Shown: piece after piece, positions 12,670 through 29,743 of the stretch | Position numbering within the stretch: the first letter of the stretch is position 1 | How the letters are laid out: every line of letters begins with the position of its first letter | DNA from: a virus | Lineage: Duplodnaviria; Caudoviricetes | Virus record (IMG/VR): IMGVR_UViG_3300021343_000001 | Location: 1 to 57,543 of that record | Length of the DNA stretch: 57,543 nucleotides | Direction: 5' to 3' (one strand) | The notes under the pieces: model-generated | Database searches by the model: none | What the model saw: only the letters and a program-made list of their open reading frames with translations | What the model was told of the DNA's origin: nothing | Program-made: the position numbers and the translations under genes

Positions 12670-13343
12670 TGGACCACCTCACGCTCATGGCGGACACGCA
12701 TTGCCGCACGTTCGACATCGCCCCGGCCGAGATCCTCATCCACGCGGGCGACTTCTGCAACGCAGGCACGACGACCGAGCTGCGCGAACAGATCGAGTGG
12801 CTCGCGACCCTGCCAGCCGAGCACAAGGTTGTCATCGCCGGGAACCACGACATGTGCCTTCAGCGACCTGGGCAGCGAGAGCCGATGCTCGCGTTGTTCG
12901 AGAAGCACGGCATCACCTACCTCGAGGATTCGGGGTGCGAGGTGCTGGGATACAAGATCTGGGGCTCGCCCTACTCACCGACTTATGGGCGTTGGGCGTT
13001 CATGGAAAGCGACCAGGAACTTGTCGAGAGGTTCGCGCGCATCCCGCAAGGCATCGACATCCTGATCGTGCATGGTCCGCCCTACGGTCTCGGTGACTGG
13101 GTGCCTCGTGGCGAGCATGTCGGCTCACGAGCCCTCGTGCCACACATCGCGAGGGTCAAGCCGCGCTTGACGGTGCATGGGCATATACACGAGTGTGCGG
13201 GGCGGTGGAGGCATCCTCACGGCGGTTCGTGCGTGAATGCCTCGTGTGGGATGCGTCAGGTTTACGAGACGCACAACGGGCAGGTGTTTCGCGCGGTCGC
13301 GTGGGGCGATCCTGTCGTGTTGAGCAAGGGGGATATGCGATGA
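12669..13343 (+). CDS. calcineurin-like metallophosphoesterase (MPPED/239FB-like)
   Basis: DTH, HAGD, GNHD, HGPP, GHIHE motifs. Confidence 0.9.
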   Translation: MDHLTLMADTHCRTFDIAPAEILIHAGDFCNAGTTTELREQIEWLATLPAEHKVVIAGNHDMCLQRPGQREPMLALFEKHGITYLEDSGCEVLGYKIWGSPYSPTYGRWAFMESDQELVERFARIPQGIDILIVHGPPYGLGDWVPRGEHVGSRALVPHIARVKPRLTVHGHIHECAGRWRHPHGGSCVNASCGMRQVYETHNGQVFRAVAWGDPVVLSKGDMR

Positions 13344-13762
13344 ACATCGAGCGGACGCAACGCTGGCTTCGTCAATTTATGCGAGGCGAAATCGAGGCAT
13401 CGGAGGGTGATGTTCGCGAACTTGCAGATGCGCTTCGTGTGCTTTTTTACCGGTGGGCGGGGCTCACAGATCAGGAGCGCGCAAGCATATCTGACGAACT
13501 ATTGGAAGTCGTCGTAAGTGTTCGCGCTGAGGCAGAATGGCTTGTGCTCGAGCGTCTCGATGGTACATGTCAGCACTTACGGGCGAGTACGATTGATGAT
13601 TGGCGCGTTGTTGTTGGTGACTCCATGGGTCATGTGCCGCGACTGCCCTACATCGAGGGTGAAGGGCTGTGGATCGACATCTCGCCTCACGACATCGATG
13701 GCATCACGTCGCAATGGTTCAAGGCTATCCAGGCGGCTGATGCGTTCAGGAGGCGGCATTGA
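13340..13762 (+). CDS. hypothetical protein
   Basis: ATGA coupling; GGGGG RBS. Confidence 0.6.
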   Translation: MNIERTQRWLRQFMRGEIEASEGDVRELADALRVLFYRWAGLTDQERASISDELLEVVVSVRAEAEWLVLERLDGTCQHLRASTIDDWRVVVGDSMGHVPRLPYIEGEGLWIDISPHDIDGITSQWFKAIQAADAFRRRH

Positions 13763-15285
13763 CACTCGGTCTCGATGAATCACCACAGGAGGTGCTGCGC
13801 CGCGCGAGGGCGGCGAGGGCTCGGAGGGACTTCGGTTACTTCGTGCGCCTCGTCAAGCCTGAGTACGATGTGCAGTGGTTCCATGACGTGATCATCGAGG
13901 AACTCGCGCAGGCGACGCAGCACGAGCGCGGCGGTCGCGTCGGGCTCGCACTTCCACCAGGGCACGCCAAATCGGAGTATGCGATCCTCTATTGTGCGTG
14001 GATGGTCGCGCGAGATCCTGACATTCAGATCGCCTATGTGACCTACAACCTCGACTTCGCGAAGGTCCAGTTCAAACGGCTGAAGGATCTCGTAAGTAGT
14101 GCCCGATATGTGCACTACTTTGGCAGGCTGATCAACGACGCGCTCGCGGTCGATGCCGATGGCAAGGAAAACACAAAGGTCAAGTTCGAGATCACGAGCG
14201 GATCAGGTTGGGTTGCTGCGGCAGGCTTTGGCAGCGGGCTCGATGGTCTGCGTTGCGACCTGATCGTGATCGACGACCCGTTCAAAAAGGACGAGGCGTT
14301 TTCGCCTACGGTGCGCGAGGTGCGATGGAAGACCTACGTCGGTACGATCCTCCAGCGTCGCCGTCCTGACCGCCCATTGCACATCGTGATGCTCTTCACG
14401 CGCTGGCACCTCGACGACCTCACCGGGCGTTGCAAGAAGCATGAGCCTGATCAATGGCGATGGGTGGAGATCGAGGCGCTGCGCATGTCAGAACTCGACT
14501 CGCAGAAGGGCAGTCACATCGACGACCCGCGCGAGGATGGCGAGGCGCTCTGGGAAGCGGTCGCGACAGCGCAGGAACTCGAGGCGTACCAGACGCTCGA
14601 CGAGGGTCTGTTCTGGGCGGTGCAGCAACAGACCCCGATCCCGGCAGGCGGCGCGTTGTTCAAGAAGGACTGGTTCTCGCAGCGCTGGCAGCGTCTCACG
14701 CCGACGGGTGGCACGCTCTATCAGTCGTGGGATTTCAGGCATGGCGGCAAATCGGATGCAGGTTCGTATGCCGTGGGGCTGCTCGCGCTTCAGTTCGATC
14801 ACCAACCCGAGAAGCTCTACATCCTCTCGATGAAGCGCGCGCGGTGGTCGCCTGACGAGACGACAGATCACTTCAACGCGGCGCTGAATGACCCGCTGTG
14901 GGGCATGGCGTCGACGATCATCATCGAGAACGCGGGCGATGGAAAGAACATCCTCGCGCACTTCAAACACCGCCACAACGGGCTCGTCTCGATCAACCCG
15001 GCTGGCTCGGGCTCGAAGGTTCGACGCGCCCGCGCGACGGTGCCTTACGCCGCACGCGGGTCGGTCGTGTTGCCTGCTGTCGAGATCGCTTCGGATGAAC
15101 CATGGATCGATGCGTTCCTCGCGGAGGTGACGCTGTTCACCGACCTCGGGAGCGGCACCGGCAATGACGATATTGTCGACGCTTTGTCACAGTTGATCGA
15201 TTACGTGTATGATGCGAGCGACAGCGCCCTCGATGATCGGGGCTTGGCGCGCGAGGCTTGGAAGATCCTGATGGGGACAGCATAG
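13759..15285 (+). CDS. terL: terminase large subunit
   Basis: Walker A PPGHAKS, Walker B LIVIDDP, TRWH.DDL, nuclease QSWD and DDIVDALSQ. Confidence 0.95.
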   Translation: MTLGLDESPQEVLRRARAARARRDFGYFVRLVKPEYDVQWFHDVIIEELAQATQHERGGRVGLALPPGHAKSEYAILYCAWMVARDPDIQIAYVTYNLDFAKVQFKRLKDLVSSARYVHYFGRLINDALAVDADGKENTKVKFEITSGSGWVAAAGFGSGLDGLRCDLIVIDDPFKKDEAFSPTVREVRWKTYVGTILQRRRPDRPLHIVMLFTRWHLDDLTGRCKKHEPDQWRWVEIEALRMSELDSQKGSHIDDPREDGEALWEAVATAQELEAYQTLDEGLFWAVQQQTPIPAGGALFKKDWFSQRWQRLTPTGGTLYQSWDFRHGGKSDAGSYAVGLLALQFDHQPEKLYILSMKRARWSPDETTDHFNAALNDPLWGMASTIIIENAGDGKNILAHFKHRHNGLVSINPAGSGSKVRRARATVPYAARGSVVLPAVEIASDEPWIDAFLAEVTLFTDLGSGTGNDDIVDALSQLIDYVYDASDSALDDRGLAREAWKILMGTA

Positions 15286-15294
15286 AGGGCACAC

Positions 15295-17634
15295 ATGAGT
15301 GAGGCAGGGCAAGAGAAGGCGTTCAGGTGGGATACGGCAGCGGGTATCCTCCAGAACTTCGTAACGAAGATGGGCACGCAGCGTGCGCGCAAGCAGTCGA
15401 ACATGGTGGGCGAGCGCGTGTGGTTCACGCCTGCCCAACTCGACATCCTCGCACAACATGGTCTCGTCAAGCGCATCAACGGCGAACTCCCTGCCGACGC
15501 AGGCAGCAAGCCTGAAGTCGTCGCGAGCAATGACGTGGCTCCTGCGCTCGAACAGCAACTGCGCGACCTGAAGGTCAGGCAGAAGTTTCGCAAGGCAGGC
15601 ACCGCCGCGCGCAGGCAAGGCGGCGCGGTTGTCTGGATCACATGCGAGGGTGGCGGCGAGACATACGAGCCTCTCGATCTCTCGACGATCAAGCGAGTGA
15701 CGAACCTCGTCGTGATCGACTCGAGCGAGTTGTCTGTCGAGACGTTTAAGCCAAAGAGTGACGATGATCGCGTGCAGATCACGGCAGGTTACTACGTCGA
15801 CGAGCCACGTCGTGCGGATTATCGCGAGCCACTCGCCTACCGATACACGCCATCGCAGGGCGGTAAGGAGCGCGTGATCCATGCGTCGCGCCTGATCAAG
15901 TTCTATGGCGATGACGTGCCCGATCGCTTGCGTGATCAGTACCAGGGATGGGGAGCGCCCGCTGTCGAGGCTGTGTGGGGCACGCTCTCGTCTGCGCTGC
16001 TCGCGCTCGACGGCGGCGCTGAGATCATCTCCGAGATGGGGCTCACCGTCTTTCAGATCGACAACCTGAAAGAGATCCAGTCAGGTGGCGAGCAAGGGGG
16101 ACTCGGCTCGTGGATGGCGCTCGTGGCAGAAGCGAAGAGCACGCTTCGATCACTCCTGCTCGCTCCGGGTCAGTCCGTCGAGCGTCTCGACATGTCGGTC
16201 GCGGGATGGTCCGAGGTGTACGATCGCATCGCGCAGGAGCTGTGCGCAGAGGCGGCGATGCCTGTCACGAAGTTGTATGGTCAGGCGCCGGGCGGGCTCT
16301 CGACTGACGACGCGAGCGCGTGGCGCAACTGGTCGGCGCGCGTGAGCGATTACCAGGACGATCAGCTGATCCCCGCCTACCTCTACCTGCTCGATGTGTT
16401 GTGTGCCGCGAAGGAGGGGCCGTGCAAGGGCAAGCGCCCCGAGACGCTCGATGTGGAACTCGCGCCATACGAGGTGCCCACCGAACTCGAAGAAGCGGAG
16501 ATCGCCAACAAGTGGGGCTCGACCGTCAACACGCTCGTGCAGATGGGCATCATCGACGAGGACGAAGCGCGCGAAACGATGCGCCGCGTCAAGGGGATGC
16601 GACTGCAAGAAGAGGAGGTCGAAGACGACACGACGGGGCAAGAGACGCTCGCGGCGCTCATGGCGCAGGCGGGTGAGCAAGGCGCGACGCAGGAGCCGGG
16701 CGCACCCGTCGGTGGTGACATCGAGAAGGCTCAAGACGCGGCGCTCAACGGCGCTCAGATCACGGCTGCTGCTAACATCGTGTCGAGCGTGTATCAGGGG
16801 CTCTACCCCGCAGAGCAGGGCGCACAGCTCCTCATGCTCGGCAACCCGACGCTGACGCCCGAGCGTGCACGCGCGATCGTCGGCGCAGGCAACCCGCAGC
16901 CTGTTGATCAAGAGCAGCCTGTCGAAGACGCAATGCGCGTCGATCCCTACGCAGGCATCGACGACCCCAAACTCCCTGAGAACGTCAAGGCGCTCTCTCC
17001 CCGCAAGCGTGCCGCATTCGTCGAGGCGTTCAACAGCGCATATGAGGAGAGCGATGGTGACGAGGGCAAGGCGTTCGCCACGGGCTACGCAGCAGCGAAG
17101 CGCGTCGACTCGATGCGTCATGACTACGGCGCGCGCTCGATGTGCTTCGCGCTGATGCCAAGCGAGGAGGTCGCAGCAGCGTTCGCGCCGTTGTCCGAGA
17201 TCCCACAAGACGAATTGCACGCGACCTTGCTCTACTTGCCCGACGTGGCAGACGAGGAGGTCGATCGCGTGCTCGAGACGGTCGAGGCGTTCGCGAGCAA
17301 GCAAGCGCCCATGAGGATGCGCACATCTGGACCTGGTACGTTCATCAACGGCGACGCCATCGCGCGGATCATGCTGCTCGAGGGGCTCGGGTTGACCGAG
17401 ATGCGCACCGACCTCAAACGCGAGGTCGAGGACATCGACGCGCTCGGTCTGCAAACTCACGACTTTACGGCGCACATGACGCTCGGGTATCATGACCGCG
17501 CCGACTACCCCGCTGAGTTGCTCGCGCAGATGGCGATGGTGGAAACGGACGAATGGAGCGCAGGCGAGATCATCGCGTGGCGCAATGGCGACATCGTGGC
17601 GCACATGCCACTGAAAGGAGGAGAGGAGAGATGA
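15295..17634 (+). CDS. portal protein (DUF1073-type) fused to ChaB-like and 2H-phosphoesterase (Acb1-like) domains
   Basis: Follows terL; IHASRLI.F.G, MPVTKLYGQAPGGL; C-terminal LP..VK.LS.R....F.EAFNSAYE (ChaB-like) and HATL...HMTL (2H). Confidence 0.85.
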   Translation: MSEAGQEKAFRWDTAAGILQNFVTKMGTQRARKQSNMVGERVWFTPAQLDILAQHGLVKRINGELPADAGSKPEVVASNDVAPALEQQLRDLKVRQKFRKAGTAARRQGGAVVWITCEGGGETYEPLDLSTIKRVTNLVVIDSSELSVETFKPKSDDDRVQITAGYYVDEPRRADYREPLAYRYTPSQGGKERVIHASRLIKFYGDDVPDRLRDQYQGWGAPAVEAVWGTLSSALLALDGGAEIISEMGLTVFQIDNLKEIQSGGEQGGLGSWMALVAEAKSTLRSLLLAPGQSVERLDMSVAGWSEVYDRIAQELCAEAAMPVTKLYGQAPGGLSTDDASAWRNWSARVSDYQDDQLIPAYLYLLDVLCAAKEGPCKGKRPETLDVELAPYEVPTELEEAEIANKWGSTVNTLVQMGIIDEDEARETMRRVKGMRLQEEEVEDDTTGQETLAALMAQAGEQGATQEPGAPVGGDIEKAQDAALNGAQITAAANIVSSVYQGLYPAEQGAQLLMLGNPTLTPERARAIVGAGNPQPVDQEQPVEDAMRVDPYAGIDDPKLPENVKALSPRKRAAFVEAFNSAYEESDGDEGKAFATGYAAAKRVDSMRHDYGARSMCFALMPSEEVAAAFAPLSEIPQDELHATLLYLPDVADEEVDRVLETVEAFASKQAPMRMRTSGPGTFINGDAIARIMLLEGLGLTEMRTDLKREVEDIDALGLQTHDFTAHMTLGYHDRADYPAELLAQMAMVETDEWSAGEIIAWRNGDIVAHMPLKGGEER

Positions 17635-18107
17635 TACCAGTCATTATTGAGAGCCCGTTCGCGGGTGATGTCGAGCGAAACAAGGCGTACTTGCAGGAGT
17701 GTATCAGGCACGCGGTGCGCAATGGTGAAACGCCCTACGCATCCCACCAGATGCTCACCGACGCACTCGACGATCTCGATCCAGCAGAGCGCAAGTTGGG
17801 TATCGACGCAGGGCTCGCACTCGGCGATGTGATCGTGAGCGCGGGAGGCAAGCACATCTTTTATCTCGACCTCGAGATGTCAAACGGCATGTGCTACGCG
17901 CTCGAGCACGCAGCGTCGCTCGGGCGAACTGTCGAGTTCCGATGGCTCTCGGGGAGTCTGAGCGAATACACGATGGCTGCGGCGTTTCCTGCACGTTACA
18001 TTGTCGACGGAACGCCCATCGCCAAGACGCCGCTTTTCGGAGCTGCGCGTTCGCACTATCTCAAGGCCAAGATTCGACGAGACGCAAAGAAAGGAGGAGA
18101 GGAATGA
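17631..18107 (+). CDS. nucleoside 2-deoxyribosyltransferase-like (DUF4406/DUF7768-like) protein
   Basis: VIIESPFAGDVERN..Y, GE.PYASH, D..P.ER..G, S.GM. Confidence 0.7.
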   Translation: MIPVIIESPFAGDVERNKAYLQECIRHAVRNGETPYASHQMLTDALDDLDPAERKLGIDAGLALGDVIVSAGGKHIFYLDLEMSNGMCYALEHAASLGRTVEFRWLSGSLSEYTMAAAFPARYIVDGTPIAKTPLFGAARSHYLKAKIRRDAKKGGEE

Positions 18108-18484
18108 TCTTTGATCTGGTGTACGAAGACAGCACCGACGAACCATGCGCTCGAGCGTGCAAGTGTGCGAGCATCCCATACGATAGCGCGAGGCTCGGCA
18201 AACTGCGCAACGAACTTCGCGCGCTGCTCAGGTGGGCAGACGCGAGCGACGAGAAGTGGACCGATGCGCGCAAGGCGCAAGTCGCGCAGCAGATGCATGA
18301 CCTCGAGCGGCGCATCGAGGCATACCACGAGATGGCGTGCGAGATCGCCTCGGTGTGCCCGCTGGCGCGCGTTGACTACGGGGTGGTGCATGGTGTGGCG
18401 CGTGAGATCCCGTTGCTGTTCGAGTTGCCCGAGTGGGCGCGCGAGGACGTCGACAGTGAGGACGCAGCGAGCGAGGAGGAGTGA
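18104..18484 (+). CDS. hypothetical protein
   Basis: AGGAGG RBS; ATGA coupling. Confidence 0.65.
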   Translation: MIFDLVYEDSTDEPCARACKCASIPYDSARLGKLRNELRALLRWADASDEKWTDARKAQVAQQMHDLERRIEAYHEMACEIASVCPLARVDYGVVHGVAREIPLLFELPEWAREDVDSEDAASEEE

Positions 18485-18771
18485 TGGAAGTCGAGATCGA
18501 GGAGTATGAACGCGAGGCAATGCGATTCTTCTGCGCTGCCAAACGATGGGGCGCACACGTCAAGATGGAGGCGCACTACTCGGGCGCACACTTCAGTCAT
18601 GACTTCGTTTACATCGAGGTTGGCGAGCGGTTCTGCTGCTGCTTCGAGAGGGATGGCTCGATCACCAGTTACCCGTGGGATTACAACGATTTCGAGTACG
18701 CGCTTCAGGATGCGAAGACGAGTGCGGATCGATGGCTGGCGAAGCATGAGAAAAACGAGGAGGAAGAGTGA
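18481..18771 (+). CDS. hypothetical protein
   Basis: Coupled ORF. Confidence 0.65.
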   Translation: MMEVEIEEYEREAMRFFCAAKRWGAHVKMEAHYSGAHFSHDFVYIEVGERFCCCFERDGSITSYPWDYNDFEYALQDAKTSADRWLAKHEKNEEEE

Positions 18772-18935
18772 CGCAGGATTACGTCTATGTGCTGTGCGGC
18801 GGCAAGTGGTGCCGCGCGGAGGTGCTCACGCATGACGAGCGATCGGTTACGATCATCCTCGGTGTTGCTGGCACGCCGCATCGTTTCGTCGTGAACAAGT
18901 CGAAGGTGCGATACGAGGAGCCGGGGGATGAGTGA
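18768..18935 (+). CDS. 55-aa SH3/Tudor-like protein (below the ORF-track length cutoff)
   Basis: GTG start after GAGGAGG; MTQDYVYVLCGGKWCRAEV...VRYE. Confidence 0.65.
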   Translation: MTQDYVYVLCGGKWCRAEVLTHDERSVTIILGVAGTPHRFVVNKSKVRYEEPGDE

Positions 18936-19254
18936 CATTCTCGTGCGCGTGCCTCAAAAGGAGATCGCTCACTTTTGGGAGCCTATCTTCACCGATGAAA
19001 TAGCATGGTGGACGCTACCATGCCAGCCAGTGAGGTGCGGCAAGGGAGATCGGATCTGGTTTCAGATCGGGGATGAGGTGGTCGCGCGTGCGAGGATCTC
19101 ATGGATCGAGCACGCTACCAAGCGATGCGAATCTACCGGGCGCATCTGGCGCGGGGTGCACCTCGGATGGAGCGGCGGCGATCTGGAGCGGCTCGAGGTG
19201 CCGAGAGAAGGGAAGGGCTTGACGCGCGGCTTTATGTATTACGAGGAGGAGTAA
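18928..19254 (+). CDS. PUA/ASCH/EVE-like domain protein
   Basis: WW.L...P.....GDRIWFQ....VVA.A.I. Confidence 0.5.
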   Translation: MSDILVRVPQKEIAHFWEPIFTDEIAWWTLPCQPVRCGKGDRIWFQIGDEVVARARISWIEHATKRCESTGRIWRGVHLGWSGGDLERLEVPREGKGLTRGFMYYEEE

Positions 19255-19418
19255 TGAGCGAGGGTGATCCGGTCGAGGTGTGGACATACGGCGCGTGGCG
19301 TCCTGGCGTACTGCTCAAGCGCAGCGAGCAATGGTCTCACGTCAAGGTCATCGTTGATGATGACGAGCGCGTGTTCTGGGCAGCAAACAGGTTCGTTCGA
19401 GAAGTGGAGGTGAACTGA
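19254..19418 (+). CDS. small SH3/Tudor-like protein
   Basis: GDPVEVW..GAW.PG.L....V.V.V.....F......VR. Confidence 0.6.
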   Translation: MSEGDPVEVWTYGAWRPGVLLKRSEQWSHVKVIVDDDERVFWAANRFVREVEVN

Positions 19419-19723
19419 TGGGCGCATATTCGAGTTATGTGGTGACATGGTGCAAGATTCTTGGTGTTAAACTTCAAGTGTATGTCGAAGGCAACATGTA
19501 CGAGTTTGTCGAGATCGAGCCAAATGATTGGATGGGGCGAGATATATCGTTGCAGTTGAGGCACGACGGCAACGGTCATTTCGTCGGCTTTTCGTGGGGG
19601 CACGCACCGGGTGAAAAGTACGAGTGGGAAGGAGCGTACAAACGCGCTGAACTTGAGGCGTGGTTTATCGAGAACGGCTTGCCCGATGGCACCGAAGTTG
19701 TCTCGATCGATTGGAGTCTTTGA
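19418..19723 (+). CDS. hypothetical protein
   Basis: GGAGGT RBS; TGATG coupling. Confidence 0.65.
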   Translation: MGAYSSYVVTWCKILGVKLQVYVEGNMYEFVEIEPNDWMGRDISLQLRHDGNGHFVGFSWGHAPGEKYEWEGAYKRAELEAWFIENGLPDGTEVVSIDWSL

Positions 19724-19725
19724 CC

Positions 19726-20472
19726 ATGCCACGTCGCAAGCCTCCCGCGCGCGAACTGACGAAGACCATCGAGCAGCAGTTCGCGCGCGACATTCTCAAA
19801 CTCATGACGCCCGCTCGCCAGCTCATGCGCGCGATGAAGGCAGCCGAGCGCCAGCGCAACGACGCGCTCGGTGATTCGGTCCGCGACCTCTCGAGCGCCA
19901 TCACCTCGTGGTTGCAAGGCATGATCAGCGACAAGGCCGCGCGCGCTGTCGCAGAGCGTCAGATGAAGCGCGTGGAGCGGTTCGGTCGACTCGACTTCGA
20001 GCGGTGGTCCGAGATGGTCGGCATTGATCCGAGAGAGGCGAAGGGGCGCGCTGCTGTTGCCGTCGATGCGATGATGGAGAACGCCATCCTCGAGTCCATG
20101 GGTTACATCAAGGACATCCCGGTGCAACTCGCGCAGCAGGTGAGCGATGAGTTCTCCAACGCGCTCCTGCTCGGGCAACGCGGCAAGTCGCTCGCCACGA
20201 TCTTCGAGGAGCGCCTCGGTGTCGCGGAGTCGAGGGCGAAACTGATCGCGAGAGACCAGAGCACGAAGGCGCTCGGCAACATGCAGAAGGCACGTCAGCA
20301 AGCGCTTGGCGTGACGAGGTATGAGTGGGTAACGGCGGGTGATGAGAGGGTGCGACCCTCGCACGCAGCGCTGAATGGCAAGGTGTTCGACTGGAACGAC
20401 CCGCCGCCCGAGGGGCACCCAGGCGAACCCGTTGCTTGCAGGTGCGTGGCTGCTCCGATCCTCGACGACTAG
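19726..20472 (+). CDS. head morphogenesis protein (SPP1 gp7 / MuF family)
   Basis: RAKLIARDQ, Y.W.TAGDERVR.SH..LNG, HPG...CRC. Confidence 0.92.
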   Translation: MPRRKPPARELTKTIEQQFARDILKLMTPARQLMRAMKAAERQRNDALGDSVRDLSSAITSWLQGMISDKAARAVAERQMKRVERFGRLDFERWSEMVGIDPREAKGRAAVAVDAMMENAILESMGYIKDIPVQLAQQVSDEFSNALLLGQRGKSLATIFEERLGVAESRAKLIARDQSTKALGNMQKARQQALGVTRYEWVTAGDERVRPSHAALNGKVFDWNDPPPEGHPGEPVACRCVAAPILDD

Positions 20473-22440: not shown

Positions 22441-22479
22441 GGGCAATCTGTTGCCCGTATGTCGTGGCACCCCTATTTT
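22441..22479 (+). promoter_or_regulatory. putative rightward promoter for head genes, with a palindrome over the -35
   Basis: GGGCAA-TCTG-TTGCCC; TTGCCC-17nt-TATTTT. Confidence 0.45.
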
Positions 22480-22511
22480 GCATGAGGGAAAGTCATCGCT
22501 CCGAGGGATGC

Positions 22512-23834
22512 ATGAATCGAGTTCATAGGTACGATCAAGGCACGCTGCGCAAGCCGCACCGCACCGAGGAGGGCTTCCTCTATTTCGAGTGCGTCGCGAC
22601 TCGTGCGGGTGTGTTCGAGTATCGCCGCGCCGATGGCTCCATACGGCGCGAGTGGCGACCACGGGAAGAGGTCGCGCGCGCTGATAGCCTCGCGACCCTC
22701 GGTCGTAAGCCTGTCACGCTCACGCACCCTGAAGAGGGCGGCGTGCCTGTCCTCGTGACGCCTGGCAACGCGAAGCAATTCGCAGCGGGCGCAGTTGGCG
22801 AAGAGGTCGAGGTGATCGACCGCGCCGACGACCTGACCGAAGAAGAGGGTCCATACGTCCGCGTGACTGGCAGCGTGTACCGCTCGGACGCCATCGACGC
22901 GATCGAGTCAGGTATGCGCGCTGTCTCGTGCGGATACGAATGCGACCTCGAAGAGAAGGCGGGCACCACGCCCACGGGCGAGCGATACGACTGCATCCAA
23001 CGCAACATCACATACAATCACCTCGCGATCGTCCCTCGTGGTCGAGCGGGAGATGTCGCCGTCCTTCGCGCTGACACAGATGATGCTGTGCAGTGGGGCG
23101 GAATCACACCACAGCACAGCCAAAAGGTGACGCATATGAAGCGCAAGAACCTTCGCGGGGACGAATACGAGATCCCCGCCGATCAGTCTGCCCTCGCTGA
23201 ACTCCTCCTCTCCGATGTCCGCACGCTTAAGGCGGATATGGAAGAGATGAAAGAGGACATCGACGGCATGGAAGAGGAACTGAAGAAAGAGGACGCCGAC
23301 CCTTACGCCGATCGCATCGACGCCATGCAAGAGAAGATGGACGCTCAGGGCGAGATGCTCGACAAGATCGTCAAGATGCTCGCATCCATGGGCGGCGAGG
23401 AACTCGAGGAAGCAGGCGAGATGGAGCGCGAGGACCGCGCCGACGCATTCAAGAATATGGATGACGGCGCGCTGAAAGCTCACCTCGAGAAGGTCCGCGC
23501 CGACGCCAAGGCTGAAGCGCTCGCGCGCCTCGAACTCGAAGGCAAGGCGACCGCGCTCAAGATCGACGGCATCGACAAGCTCGACGACCGCAAGTTGCTC
23601 GAGGCAGTCGCCGCGAAAGCGACCGGCACCGAGGTCCGCGCCGACGCTTCCGATGACTACCTGCGTGGCATGATCGCCAACGTGCGCATCGACGACGGCG
23701 CGAGTCAGGAAGGCGCGTCCTACCTTGGCACGGGCAACCGTCAGGTCAACACCGACGGCGCGCTCTCGGGCAAGGATCTCATGCTCGCCAACCTCGCGAA
23801 AGCGCGTCAGGCACGCCTCGACGCTCAACAGTGA
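22512..23834 (+). CDS. prohead protease/scaffold (DUF2213 family)
   Basis: T.EGFL, R.GV..Y, PVT..HP, VSCGY.C, Q..I.YNHLAIV.RGRAG; acidic coiled-coil C-terminus. Confidence 0.9.
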   Translation: MNRVHRYDQGTLRKPHRTEEGFLYFECVATRAGVFEYRRADGSIRREWRPREEVARADSLATLGRKPVTLTHPEEGGVPVLVTPGNAKQFAAGAVGEEVEVIDRADDLTEEEGPYVRVTGSVYRSDAIDAIESGMRAVSCGYECDLEEKAGTTPTGERYDCIQRNITYNHLAIVPRGRAGDVAVLRADTDDAVQWGGITPQHSQKVTHMKRKNLRGDEYEIPADQSALAELLLSDVRTLKADMEEMKEDIDGMEEELKKEDADPYADRIDAMQEKMDAQGEMLDKIVKMLASMGGEELEEAGEMEREDRADAFKNMDDGALKAHLEKVRADAKAEALARLELEGKATALKIDGIDKLDDRKLLEAVAAKATGTEVRADASDDYLRGMIANVRIDDGASQEGASYLGTGNRQVNTDGALSGKDLMLANLAKARQARLDAQQ

Positions 23835-23870: not shown

Positions 23871-24965
23871 ATGCCTCAAGTGTCTGCACCTTACCCGTTG
23901 CCCGCTGGGCTCGACGGCGATTGGTACGATAGCAACTTCTTCAAGGACAGCATCACGCTCGTCAACGCCGACCCTCAAGCCGTGCAGATCAGCACGCTCA
24001 CGGTCAGCGCCGCGACGAACGACAAGACCTACACGGTCTACATTCAGAACATCCCGGTGTCCTTCACCGCCGATGGCAGCGCGACCACGGCTGAGATCGC
24101 CACGGGTCTCGGCGCTGCGATCGAGGCAGAGAGCGCGCTCGCGTTTATCGACGTGTCGGTCGCCTCGAACGTCGTAACCCTCACCGGTCGTCAAGAGGGG
24201 CTCGTCTTCACGCTCGTGGAGAACGACGCGCAACTTGCCTTCGCGACCTCGCAAAGCGCAGCGGATGCCGCTGTCGTGAACTTCGGTCGCTTCATCGTCC
24301 GCGCGGCTGACGCCTCGGACGGCACCAAGCAAGGTCGCCTGATCAACGGCACCGACCTCGACGGCGCGAGCGCGACGCTCTCCTTCACCGCCGATAACTC
24401 GCAGCCCTACTCGGGCACGATCACCATCGACGGCGTGGGTTACGACTTCACGTTCACCTCGGATGGCAGCGCGACCGCGAACGAGATCGCCACGGGCCTG
24501 AAGGCTGCGATCGATGCGCTCTCCCTCGACGTGACCACGGCGCTCGACACTGATGATCTCGTGATCACCGGCGACGAGGGCGTGAACTTCGTCCTCTCGA
24601 ACCTCGCCGCTGGTGGCGCTGGCGCGATCTCGCTCGACGCCTACAGCGCAGCCTCGACGCTCTCCGAGTGTCTGGTTGCTGTCCGCAGCGACGCGCGCAC
24701 GCAAACCTCGAGCGGCATCGTCAACGGCTACGCGCCAAACAGCAACATGGCAGCCGGTCGCAAGGGGCGCGTTCGCGTGCCCACCGAGGCGCTCGTGAGC
24801 GCAGGAGATCCTGTCTACGTGCGCTACGCCGCTGATGGCTCGCTCGATCAACTCGGCGTCTTCAGCAACGCCGCAGGCACCGGGCTCGTGCGCATCGACA
24901 ACCTTTTCAACGTCAGTTGGTACGAGGGGTCTTCGCAGCAACAGGGCGTCCTTCAACTTGGCTGA
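23871..24965 (+). CDS. head decoration/cement protein with a duplicated internal module
   Basis: Between scaffold and capsid; V.FGR, GR.RV..E..V.AGDPVYVR; two FT.DGSAT..EIATGL.AAI repeats. Confidence 0.7.
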   Translation: MPQVSAPYPLPAGLDGDWYDSNFFKDSITLVNADPQAVQISTLTVSAATNDKTYTVYIQNIPVSFTADGSATTAEIATGLGAAIEAESALAFIDVSVASNVVTLTGRQEGLVFTLVENDAQLAFATSQSAADAAVVNFGRFIVRAADASDGTKQGRLINGTDLDGASATLSFTADNSQPYSGTITIDGVGYDFTFTSDGSATANEIATGLKAAIDALSLDVTTALDTDDLVITGDEGVNFVLSNLAAGGAGAISLDAYSAASTLSECLVAVRSDARTQTSSGIVNGYAPNSNMAAGRKGRVRVPTEALVSAGDPVYVRYAADGSLDQLGVFSNAAGTGLVRIDNLFNVSWYEGSSQQQGVLQLG

Positions 24966-25015: not shown

Positions 25016-25927
25016 ATGCCGACCACGCAAATCAACGGCCTCTCCGCCTTTACCGGAGAACAGCTCATCTCGCACGCGAACCGCGTGTATGAGGAGGTCT
25101 TGCCTCCGCTCAACAGCGACAAGGTGATGACCCCCACCGGGTCCGAGCACAAGTTCATGGCGCAGATCGAGAAGCTCGTCTCGCAGCACGTCGGGCAGGC
25201 TGATTGGGTCAGTGACGACGGGCGCGACATTCCTCGCGCCAACAGCGTCACGATCCGCGACCTCTACAACAACGCGCTCTTCGGTTGCTCCTACGGGTTC
25301 AACTACAGCGAGCAAGGCGCAGCGCAGAAGGTCGGGCTCGGTCTCCTCGATCGCCGCGCTCGCGCATGTCGCCGCGCGATGGAGTCGTTTCGCAATGAGG
25401 TCTTCTTCGTCGGCTCGACCGCGAAGCAGATCTACGGCGTGAGCAACAACCCGTATGTCCCTCGCATCACCATCGACGCGACGGACTTCCAGGCAGGCGC
25501 AGATCCAGACAACACGCTCGCCGCGTTGCATGGGATGGAGAACCAGGTTGACGAGCAGAGCAACCAGGCGTTCCAGCCTGACGTGCTCGCGATGCCGCAG
25601 ACCTACTACAACTTCATCGCGACGGCGCGCGCGTCGACGCTCAACAGCGAGACGATCCTCACGGTCTTCCTGCGCAACGCGCAGTGGATCAAGTCGGTCA
25701 TCTCGATCCGCGAGTTCAACACCGCTGGTCCTGCCGGGCTGCCAATCATGGTCGCGCTCTCGACGCAATCGCCCGACTTCATCGAGAACATCGTGCCCGA
25801 GGAACTCGAGATCCTCGCGCCGCTGCGCACCTCTCCGCTCGAGACTACCGTCTCGATGGTCGGTGAGACTGCAGGCATGATCACCGAATACCCGATCGGG
25901 CACCTGATCGGCGAGTTCGACGAGTGA
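25016..25927 (+). CDS. major capsid protein (DUF2184-type, HK97 fold)
   Basis: Position; N.V.F.G......YG..NNP, PD.LAMP, TIL..FL.N. Confidence 0.85.
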   Translation: MPTTQINGLSAFTGEQLISHANRVYEEVLPPLNSDKVMTPTGSEHKFMAQIEKLVSQHVGQADWVSDDGRDIPRANSVTIRDLYNNALFGCSYGFNYSEQGAAQKVGLGLLDRRARACRRAMESFRNEVFFVGSTAKQIYGVSNNPYVPRITIDATDFQAGADPDNTLAALHGMENQVDEQSNQAFQPDVLAMPQTYYNFIATARASTLNSETILTVFLRNAQWIKSVISIREFNTAGPAGLPIMVALSTQSPDFIENIVPEELEILAPLRTSPLETTVSMVGETAGMITEYPIGHLIGEFDE

Positions 25928-28339: not shown

Positions 28340-29743
28340 ATGCCAGCAAACTTCAACGAAAACGTGCAGATCACGGTGACGGCTGACGCCGCGCCGGTCG
28401 GTCGCGCAGGCTTTGGCGTGCCCATCGTGGGCGACGCGGCGGGCATGTCCGAGCGCGTGCAGTATTTCACGGGCGTCTCGGGCGCATCGGCTGCGCAAAC
28501 CGCAGGCGACATCACCAGCGCGCAGCTCGCCGCGATCACCGCAGCGTTCGCGCAGAACCCTCGCCCGGCTCGCGTCGGCGCAGCGCGCACCTCCTTTACT
28601 GACGTGGCGCAAGTCGACACCGTGACCGTGGGCGGCACGCTCGCAGGCGGTGGCGGCGAGGACTTCACCGTCACCATCAACGGCACGGACTTCACGTACA
28701 CGACCGCTCCATCCGATGCGATCTCGGACGTGATCGCCGGGCTCGAGTCACTCATCAACGCAGGCAGCGAGCCTGTCACCGCTGCCGACGCATCACCCAA
28801 CCTCACGCTGACCGCTGACGTGGCGGGCGATGCCTTCACGACCGCTGTCTCGACGGACGCGGCGAGCGGCACGATCGTCTTCGTGAACACGACCGCGAAC
28901 CAATCCGTCGCGACCGAGTTGCAAGCCGTGCTCGACGAGAACAGTGATTGGTACGGCTTCACGCTCGTCTCTCGCGCTGACAAGGACGTGCGACGCGCTG
29001 CGGAGTGGGTCGAGTCGGCAAACCGCATCTACGTCGCACAGTCGAGCACGGCGGGCGTCCTGACGACCTCGACGAGTGACATCATGAGCGAGTTGCAGGA
29101 TGCGTCCTACAACCGAACGGCGTTGCTCTACTACAGCGACGACAGCGAATACGCTGACCTCGCGTGGCTCGCCACGAAGTTGGCTTGCGACCTCGATGTG
29201 AAAACGACCGTTTGGTACAACAAGACCCTTCAAGGGATTCCGGTCGATGACGCCAACGTTACGACGACGCAAAAGAACAACGCGGAAGGGAAGAACGCGA
29301 ACCTCTACCTCACGCTCGGGTCGCAAGGTTCGACAGGGCAAGGCAAGATGGCGAGCGGTCGCTTTATCGACGTGACCACCACGGTCGATTGGTACGCTGC
29401 GCGAGTGCGAGAGGAGATCCAGCAACTCTTCCTCAACGCGTCGAACCGCAACAGCAAGATCCCGTTCACCGATGACGGCTTTACTCAGGTCGAGAGCAAG
29501 GTGCGCAAGGTCTCGAATGCGGGCGTACTCGCCGGTCACTTCGAGACGACGAGCGATGGGTCGAGCCCGTTCTGTAACATGCCGCTTCGCTCCGAGGTGC
29601 TCTCGGCTGATGTGAGCGCGAGGCGTCTTCGCTTCGACTTTGGCGCGTTGCTCTCGGGCGGCATTCTCCTCGCAGTCGGTTCCGGCTACGTTTCTGACGA
29701 CACTGACACGATCACGCTGCTTGCTGGCGTGGTGGAGGCTTGA
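28340..29743 (+). CDS. contractile tail sheath (DUF3383-like)
   Basis: F.QNPRP, WY.F, W..KTL.G, G.MASG.FID....DW, KIPFTD.G. Confidence 0.9.
   Translation: MPANFNENVQITVTADAAPVGRAGFGVPIVGDAAGMSERVQYFTGVSGASAAQTAGDITSAQLAAITAAFAQNPRPARVGAARTSFTDVAQVDTVTVGGTLAGGGGEDFTVTINGTDFTYTTAPSDAISDVIAGLESLINAGSEPVTAADASPNLTLTADVAGDAFTTAVSTDAASGTIVFVNTTANQSVATELQAVLDENSDWYGFTLVSRADKDVRRAAEWVESANRIYVAQSSTAGVLTTSTSDIMSELQDASYNRTALLYYSDDSEYADLAWLATKLACDLDVKTTVWYNKTLQGIPVDDANVTTTQKNNAEGKNANLYLTLGSQGSTGQGKMASGRFIDVTTTVDWYAARVREEIQQLFLNASNRNSKIPFTDDGFTQVESKVRKVSNAGVLAGHFETTSDGSSPFCNMPLRSEVLSADVSARRLRFDFGALLSGGILLAVGSGYVSDDTDTITLLAGVVEA

Follow-up and report, generated by a model that had tools for sequence, protein, structure and literature searches.

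A marine phage portal protein that ends in a ChaB-like hairpin and a 2H phosphoesterase domain: a candidate head-borne counter-defence enzyme

The window analysed here is the whole of virus record IMGVR_UViG_3300021343_000001, a stretch of 57,543 bp that has direct terminal repeats and is rated 100% complete. Ten nucleotides after the stop codon of its large terminase gene starts a single open reading frame (ORF) on the plus strand (ATG at 15295, stop codon at 17632–17634), which encodes a protein of 779 amino acids (aa), hereafter P0001. P0001 is a portal protein; the marine tailed phage to which it belongs has a complete genome of 57.5 kb and also codes for a tail sheath. Behind the portal core it carries a three-helix module, a ChaB-like hairpin and a 2H phosphoesterase domain (Table 1). 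The public sequencing runs that hold the stretch 15200–17700 are labelled seawater metagenomes. We lean towards the view that the 2H domain is an enzyme that would be carried inside the phage head and directed against nucleotide signals of the host.

Modules of P0001 and the reality of the fusion

The portal core of P0001 matched the DUF1073 family PF06381 at residues 49–407 (Pfam; E 6.8e-52; 176.8 bits, cut-off 33.8) and the portal family phrog_146 (E 6e-77). Sequence matches to portals of solved structure were found as well, namely those of Pam3 (8hds, E 1e-14) and E217 (8fvh). A full-length AlphaFold2 model built with 34 aligned portal relatives reached a mean predicted local distance difference test score (pLDDT) of 80 and arranged the protein like beads on a string. 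Within this model the portal core was mostly confident, with lower block means of about 56–77 at residues 151–170 and 241–310. The core is followed by an acidic linker of mostly low confidence, the confident three-helix NGAQ module, a second low-confidence linker (residues 533–547) and the hairpin proper (residues 562–607). The NGAQ motif, ALNGAQ in P0001, is common to nine of 14 portal fusions. A first-pass annotation, made from the DNA letters, had described a 779-aa ORF after the terminase gene with a DUF1073-type portal, an acidic linker, an LNGAQI helical module and two motifs, HATL near 17218 and HMTL near 17473. This description was accurate throughout: ORF and PF06381 match agree, low-confidence linkers flank the confident helical module at residues 482–532, and the two motifs lie at exactly those positions (H642–L645 and H727–L730).

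Could the fusion be an artefact, that is, a mis-assembled or frameshifted gene pair, or else a degenerate domain kept as a structural plug inside the head? Contigs of four runs over 15200–17700 agreed with the record wherever they covered it, with 0 differing letters and 0 indels. The first-pass annotation had raised the possibility of a stop codon separating the domains, and none occurs in any covering contig of the four runs. Two of these runs span the whole region but may be the record's own source. The other two, from other studies, hold most of the portal core together with the ChaB-like and 2H parts and leave out 16712–16866; their coverage gaps carry no evidential weight. What speaks for a mis-assembly is that this linker region is covered solely by the pair of possible source runs. 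What speaks against it, besides the agreement of the contigs, is that the identical protein is recorded from 4 contigs and that this 2H domain also ends 14 further DUF1073 portals. Such recurrence supports the reality of the fusion more strongly than contig agreement does. Degeneration, in turn, conflicts with the invariance of the catalytic residues reported below. Thus, this explanation is largely refuted and we assign it only a very remote chance.

The C-terminal domain is a 2H phosphoesterase of the LigT/ThpR branch and does not belong to the Acb1 family. Two Pfam models matched above their cut-offs, PF13563 (2_5_RNA_ligase2) at residues 636–759 (E 4.9e-10, 40.1 bits versus 27) and PF02834 (LigT_PEase; E 9.5e-7, 29.4 bits versus 23.3). 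Modelled alone with 24 sequences, the domain reached a pLDDT of 93 and a predicted template modelling score (pTM) of 0.87. The residues H642, T644, H727 and T729 were invariant in all 24 aligned 2H domains and likewise in 14 of 14 portal–2H fusions, which are 22–44% identical to P0001. Judged from these alignments, the invariance of the four catalytic residues is far beyond chance, and the HxT motifs are under selection.

Structures related to the 2H model were ranked by VIA-align (Z), and Foldseek put the same families first. The leading matches were the D. radiodurans CPDase (5h7e; Z 18.9, root-mean-square deviation (rmsd) 2.4 over 160 residues), T. thermophilus TT0787 (1iuh; Z 18.0), PH0099 (1vdx; Z 17.4) and E. 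coli LigT (Z 16.9). AKAP18 (Z 14.8), Usb1 (Z 14.2), the rotavirus VP3 phosphodiesterase (Z 13.7) and mouse hepatitis virus (MHV) ns2 (Z 12.4) came lower, as did a phosphodiesterase of Burkholderia phage BCSR5 (9q2g; Z 10.8), for which a literature search returned no paper. Acb1 (7t26) was found at rank 42 (Z 10.0, rmsd 3.4, 128 residues). The Acb1 model PF23474 had no match in P0001 nor anywhere in the genome at E <= 1. In a profile comparison of the P0001 2H domain with the Acb1 domain of P0026, a protein described below, both HxT motifs aligned, although the comparison was weak (probability 1.9%, E 0.026). The domain had initially been annotated as an Acb1-like 2H phosphoesterase with paired HxT motifs. 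Our Pfam matches, model and alignments bear out the 2H superfamily and the paired motifs; membership in the Acb1 family is not supported, there being no PF23474 match and 7t26 ranking well below the LigT/ThpR structures.

For the hairpin that precedes the 2H domain, the ChaB-like character is clearer in its homologues than in P0001 itself. PF06150 covered residues 560–602 of P0001 with a score below its cut-off (E 0.0067, 17.5 bits versus 27), while the homologous segments of P0072 (31.0 bits) and P0068 (32.7 bits) exceeded it. A profile of four ChaB-like segments had E. coli ChaB (1sg7) as its best match in the Protein Data Bank (E 0.0057, 20.4 bits). The initial label of a ChaB-like segment is borne out in part, P0001 on its own falling short of the Pfam threshold. 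With a local profile we detected the module in 39 of 174 collected proteins. Its location was nearly always terminal, with nine DUF1073 portals having it at the extreme C-terminus and at least 15 non-portal, multidomain, head-associated proteins at residues 1–11. P0040, P0056, P0137 and P0149 carry tandem copies (two to three) of the module.

The in-frame Met547 of P0001 coincides exactly with the start point of free-standing ChaB-like homologues, and looks like a fusion scar. No clear Shine-Dalgarno sequence was present in the 25 nt before the corresponding ATG (16933), and a separate ChaB–2H product from this internal start is neither supported nor excluded. A role of the hairpin in docking or targeting to the capsid interior is speculation. 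From a literature search on ChaB we obtained nothing but genome papers on baculoviruses and one 'omics paper on a cyanophage.

The genes around the portal gene form a head module (Table 1), and those downstream of it, up to and including the tail sheath gene, share its strand. Between the portal gene and a separate, unfused MuF gene lie five small ORFs; none of them had a significant match in Pfam, and the two that were scanned against PHROGs had no match there. Since the MuF gene directly follows the portal gene in two related loci from IMG/VR (L002 and L009), the five ORFs look like an accessory-gene insertion. One tRNA-Ala gene with the anticodon CGC is present elsewhere in the phage genome (51979–52051, minus strand). 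When the whole of P0001 was compared by tblastn with 50,697 phage records, 594 matched, all in the portal half only, and 0 of the 594 covered at least 80% of the protein. Megablast of 13000–19000 against isolated phages gave no match, and close relatives of P0001 were found neither in IMG/VR (peptide patterns) nor in GTDB genomes. In consequence of the latter, there is no host clue beyond the label 'seawater metagenome'.

Table 1. Features of the portal gene and of the head module in the window (positions are those of the window, residues those of P0001)
Feature	Position	Strand	Evidence
Large terminase gene, directly upstream of portal	13759..15285	+	phrog_38 E 2.1e-76
Portal-NGAQ-ChaB-like-2H gene, 779 aa plus stop (P0001)	15295..17634	+	ORF, Pfam, contigs of four runs
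Portal core, residues 39–438 (DUF1073 / Phage_portal_3)	15409..16608	+	PF06381, phrog_146, 8hds
Acidic linker, residues 439–481, mostly low confidence	16609..16737	+	sequence; pLDDT < 50 at 439–452 and 458–481
Three-helix NGAQ ('LNGAQI') module, residues 482–532	16738..16890	+	helices 486–500, 506–516, 522–529; pLDDT about 87–89
ChaB-like helical hairpin, residues 547–607, from in-frame Met547	16933..17115	+	PF06150 below cut-off; 1sg7 profile match; helices 569–585, 590–607, pLDDT about 90
2H phosphoesterase domain, LigT/ThpR type, residues 608–776	17116..17622	+	PF13563, PF02834, model, 5h7e
First HxT motif, H642-A-T644	17218..17226	+	invariant 24/24 and 14/14
Second HxT motif, H727-M-T729	17473..17481	+	invariant 24/24 and 14/14
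Five small ORFs (61, 197, 109, 108, 101 aa), portal-to-MuF interval	17647–19723	+	unannotated
Separate unfused MuF-family minor head protein gene	19660..20472	+	PF04233 E 7.4e-24
Head maturation protease (DUF2213)	22464..23834	+	phrog_530 E 1e-69; PF09979 E 8e-35
Cement-like protein, 364 aa, between protease and major head gene	23871–24965	+	E217 gp24 / Pam3 gp6 structural cement family PF22758, 27.6 bits vs cut-off 27
Major head protein	25016..25927	+	phrog_264 E 2.8e-44
Tail sheath	28340–29743		

Recurrence of 2H fusions among head proteins

A word-based search with residues 540–779 returned the query alone, and relatives of this segment had to be collected by an exhaustive HMMER search. This search yielded 535 matches at E <= 1e-3, of which we examined the best 150; further DUF1073 portals dominated their top ranks. 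Separately, a word-based search gave 27 portal relatives, 7 of which had 2H Pfam domains; P0026 and P0027, described below, are also among the 27. Within the 174 proteins collected, 141 contained a 2H domain. Its partners were 15 DUF1073 portals, 16 MuF domains, four HK97-type portals and four XkdF-type proteases; the labels are conservative, come from single-sequence phmmer queries and give lower bounds. Free-standing proteins (230 aa or fewer) numbered 25, and 80 proteins were unlabelled.

Pfam resolved several of these architectures. P0051 consists of an HK97 portal, a 2H and a MuF domain, and P0085 of a ChaB, a 2H and an XkdF protease domain. HK97 capsid domains were joined to ChaB in P0068 and to 2H in P0093, and S78 prohead proteases to 2H in L007 and L008. 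At L010:2246-4786, MuF, intein and 2H occur together, the intein-splicing domain lying between the other two and scoring below its cut-off (28.6 bits versus 35.8). P0039 (2H, MuF and zincin) and P0081 (2H and MuF) both have a ChaB-like module at their start according to the local profile. A fusion of Portal_Mu with 2H was seen in the Pfam tally only. IMG/VR held three full-length portal–2H loci, L002, L003 and L009, and in L002 and L009 the next gene encodes MuF. Portals of three families serve as anchors of the same 2H clade, as do MuF, capsid proteins and prohead proteases. Since these anchors share a place inside the procapsid, packaging is the most economical reason for the fusions.

Other fusion proteins contain domains known from counter-defence. 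P0026, a metagenomic protein of 620 aa, combines a DUF1073 portal (E 6e-102) with an Acb1 domain at residues 473–618 (PF23474, E 1e-37, 129.5 bits). By these domain matches it is a true portal–Acb1 fusion, with Acb1 in the same position as the 2H domain of P0001; our literature search found no paper mentioning it. In P0097 (801 aa), a Tad3 domain at 138–251 (E 6.3e-30) precedes a LigT-type 2H domain at 314–415. According to a review (PMC13728456), inhibition of ThsB of type I Thoeris by Tad3 has been validated. P0045 comprises a ChaB-like module, a 2H domain that passes the Acb1 cut-off (28.2 versus 27) and a DRAT-like ADP-ribosyltransferase. In P0027 (1091 aa, NCBI source), a DUF1073 portal is followed by a NUDIX domain at 549–654 and a long C-terminal region with an HExxH-like motif.

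We calculated a FastTree phylogeny of 140 2H domains, one row with fewer than 110 profile positions having been dropped; the tree had many weak forks and long-branch warnings. P0001 grouped with P0002 and P0003 (support 95). All 15 DUF1073-fused 2H domains were placed in a single region, shared with free-standing forms and separate from the MuF-, HK97-portal- and XkdF-fused domains. This topology suggests an old 2H fusion in the DUF1073 portal lineage and separate fusions elsewhere.

The module order varies between the portal–2H fusion proteins. A shared '...RARQL...' plus 'WGGD' module lies between portal and 2H in P0002, P0003, P0022, P0024, P0029 and P0034, and a DUF5824-like piece is present in P0002, P0003 and P0028 (with a Pfam match for P0002 and P0003 only). 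One member of the 48-protein Pfam tally gave a Kringle match (E 3.6e-225) that looks spurious and repeat-driven. Our guess for this member is P0100 (917 aa), whose match in the HMMER search consisted of five short stretches to the ChaB-like region.

Proposed role of the portal-borne enzyme

The C-terminus of a portal protein is located in the crown and faces the capsid interior, and each head would therefore hold up to 12 copies of the enzyme if they are left untrimmed. The 2H domain of P0001 is very probably an active enzyme, and we are just as confident that it would be built into the head. We propose that it acts as a metal-independent phosphoesterase and counter-defence effector. Its substrates would be host nucleotide signals, i.e. 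cyclic oligonucleotides, or 2'-5'-linked or 2',3'-cyclic-phosphate species. Once the head maturation protease has cut it from the portal, the domain could exit with the DNA and act; alternatively, its action could fall into late infection, as new portal protein builds up. Proteolytic release is conceivable given the flexible linkers and the maturation protease encoded nearby, and the DUF2213 protease is a candidate for cutting the linkers. Taken as a whole, a portal-borne 2H enzyme against host nucleotide signals is the interpretation that we judge somewhat better than even. Its more specific parts are held with less assurance: immune nucleotide signals as the substrate are a plausible assignment that falls somewhat short of even odds, and actual injection into the next cell is a little more doubtful still.

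The same domain could instead serve in RNA-end processing or as an RNase. Where host anticodon nucleases or HEPN RNases have cut tRNA or mRNA, it would then open the resulting 2',3'-cyclic phosphate ends and thereby allow resealing by host enzymes, or it would trim or cleave host RNA like Usb1. The best structural matches (5h7e, 1iuh, 1vdx and E. coli LigT, with Usb1 at some distance) agree with such a role, as do PF13563 and PF02834, which are LigT-type families. Moreover, an RNase role is one of two options put forward for the 2H domains of polyvalent proteins in the text of Iyer et al. 2017 (PMC5512222). However, the complete genome gave 0 matches for the RNA ligase PF09414, Tpt1/KptA, an AAA_33-type kinase and RtcB; a search with PF09511 was uninformative, as its control gave no signal. 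According to the same text (PMC5512222), these 2H versions never accompany RNA ligases, and the partners found elsewhere include Acb1-scoring and Tad3 domains. We consider RNA-end processing unlikely, though it deserves to be taken seriously. An RNA repair operon was rejected, the genome being without ligase, kinase, Tpt1 and RtcB matches. The missing RNA-repair partner in a complete genome, the portal–Acb1 and Tad3–2H architectures and the published comparative analysis are the reasons why we favour a function against host signalling.

The enzyme might also work in the producer cell only. In that case the domain would stay on the portal, or on unassembled portal protein, and act late, when structural proteins trigger signalling defences, and its enclosure in the head would be a by-product. 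Neither a cleavage site nor a separate product is evident, and the ATG at 16933 lacks a clear ribosome-binding site, all of which would fit. A precedent for cytoplasmic portal action is the T7 portal, which moonlights late against RelA/SpoT according to a review (PMC13728456). Furthermore, mutations in structural proteins let phages escape type I CBASS (antiphage signalling by means of cyclic oligonucleotides), as described in a preprint (10.1101/2023.05.21.541620). Yet co-expression needs no gene fusion, and the same clade is joined to no fewer than five different anchors in the capsid interior, which selection for packaging explains more easily. An action confined to the producer cell is thus, in our estimation, improbable.

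Several observations weigh against portal-borne counter-defence by the 2H domain. Among solved structures, those closest to the domain belong to RNA-end and 2',3'-cyclic phosphodiesterases rather than to nucleases that cleave cyclic oligonucleotides; Acb1 reached only Z 10.0 and its hidden Markov model gave no match. The domain is covalently tied to the portal, so that its release needs proteolysis, and no cleavage site was identified in P0001. Our literature search found no biochemical or virion data for P0001 or any relative. With 'seawater metagenome' as the sole host clue, no matching defence system can be named. A recognised partner is lacking in 80 of the 141 2H proteins, and fusion to head proteins shows the destination of the domain, not its action.

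The proposal can be extended to residues 547–779 as a mobile 'head-cargo cassette', in which a ChaB-like docking hairpin is combined with a protease-freed, injected 2H enzyme. Such an enzyme could start to degrade immune nucleotide signals in the very first seconds of an infection, among them 2'-5'-linked species, on which Acb1 may perform badly. In this complete form we regard the idea as a long shot. If true, the ChaB-like plus 2H cassette would be a pre-loaded, transcription-independent counterpart of Acb1.

Comparison with known systems

The ThpR/LigT 2',3'-cyclic phosphodiesterases (5h7e, 1iuh, 1vdx, 5ldi) resemble the P0001 domain in fold (Z 16.9–18.9, rmsd 2.2–2.6 over 153–160 residues), in the two HxT motifs and in the Pfam families PF13563 and PF02834. 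In contrast to the P0001 domain, which ends a virion structural protein, they are free-standing cellular enzymes of ~180 aa, and the identity is 14–26%.

The C-terminal 2',5'-phosphodiesterase of rotavirus VP3 (4rpt, 5af2, 6o3v) and coronavirus ns2 (4z5v) are likewise 2H domains at the end of a viral protein associated with the virion, and both degrade a host immune oligonucleotide. However, these come from RNA viruses of eukaryotes, a capping enzyme and not a portal acts as the carrier, and the identity to P0001 is only 14–15% (VP3) and 10% (ns2).

The idea of a virion-packaged 2H counter-defence has been in print as a computational prediction since 2017. Iyer et al. 2017 (PMC5512222) described 2H domains fused to MuF or portal domains, never with RNA ligases, and proposed that they are RNases or degrade the nucleotides of nucleotide-activated defence systems. 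In section 3.4.5 of Iyer et al. 2022 (PMC9503650), 2H fusions to MuF or portal domains are listed, and NUDIX domains are noted as partners of MuF, portal and the capsid-processing peptidase. The texts of 2017 (PMC5512222) and 2022 (PMC9503650) propose that the 2H domains are packaged, injected and break down immune nucleotide signals. P0001 corresponds to these fusions in that its 2H domain is joined to a portal, has no RNA ligase partner and invites the same prediction of packaging and anti-immunity. It differs in that P0001, its marine lineage and the order portal-NGAQ-ChaB-like-2H are not named in the main text of these papers, whose figures and supplements may list such accessions; in the text of the 2017 paper (PMC5512222), 'ChaB' occurs 0 times. 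A literature search found no experimental test of the packaged portal–2H prediction. What we add is a complete phage genome, 15 portal fusions with invariant catalytic residues, a portal–Acb1 fusion and a Tad3–2H fusion. In addition, we flag the ChaB-like hairpin as an unexplained module at the protein ends of head-associated proteins.

With the enzyme and toxin fusions of MuF (SPP1 gp7 / Mu gp30) and with T4 Alt and IPI, P0001 would share the principle of cargo that a protein of the capsid interior bears or targets and that presumably passes into the host along with the DNA (PMC5512222, in the text on these systems). Here, however, the anchor is the portal, a fixed ring from which release would need proteolysis, and a separate unfused MuF gene is present.

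Acb1 (T4 gp57B; FBB1 7t26; PF23474) is likewise a phage-encoded member of the 2H superfamily with two catalytic histidines. P0001 differs from it by the absence of a PF23474 match, a Z of only 10.0 over 128 residues and the weak profile comparison. Hobbs et al. 2022 (PMC9117128) described Acb1 as free and compact (~150 aa), with aromatic residues that clamp the ligand and a lid at the C-terminus. Phage enzymes known to destroy immune signals, among them Acb1 and Apyc1, have been characterized as free proteins whose synthesis follows the onset of infection. If, on the other hand, the portal-borne enzyme is delivered or is active during assembly, counter-defence would be carried in before any gene expression. 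This would change the view of the timing of CBASS, type III CRISPR (clustered regularly interspaced short palindromic repeats) and related signalling defences.

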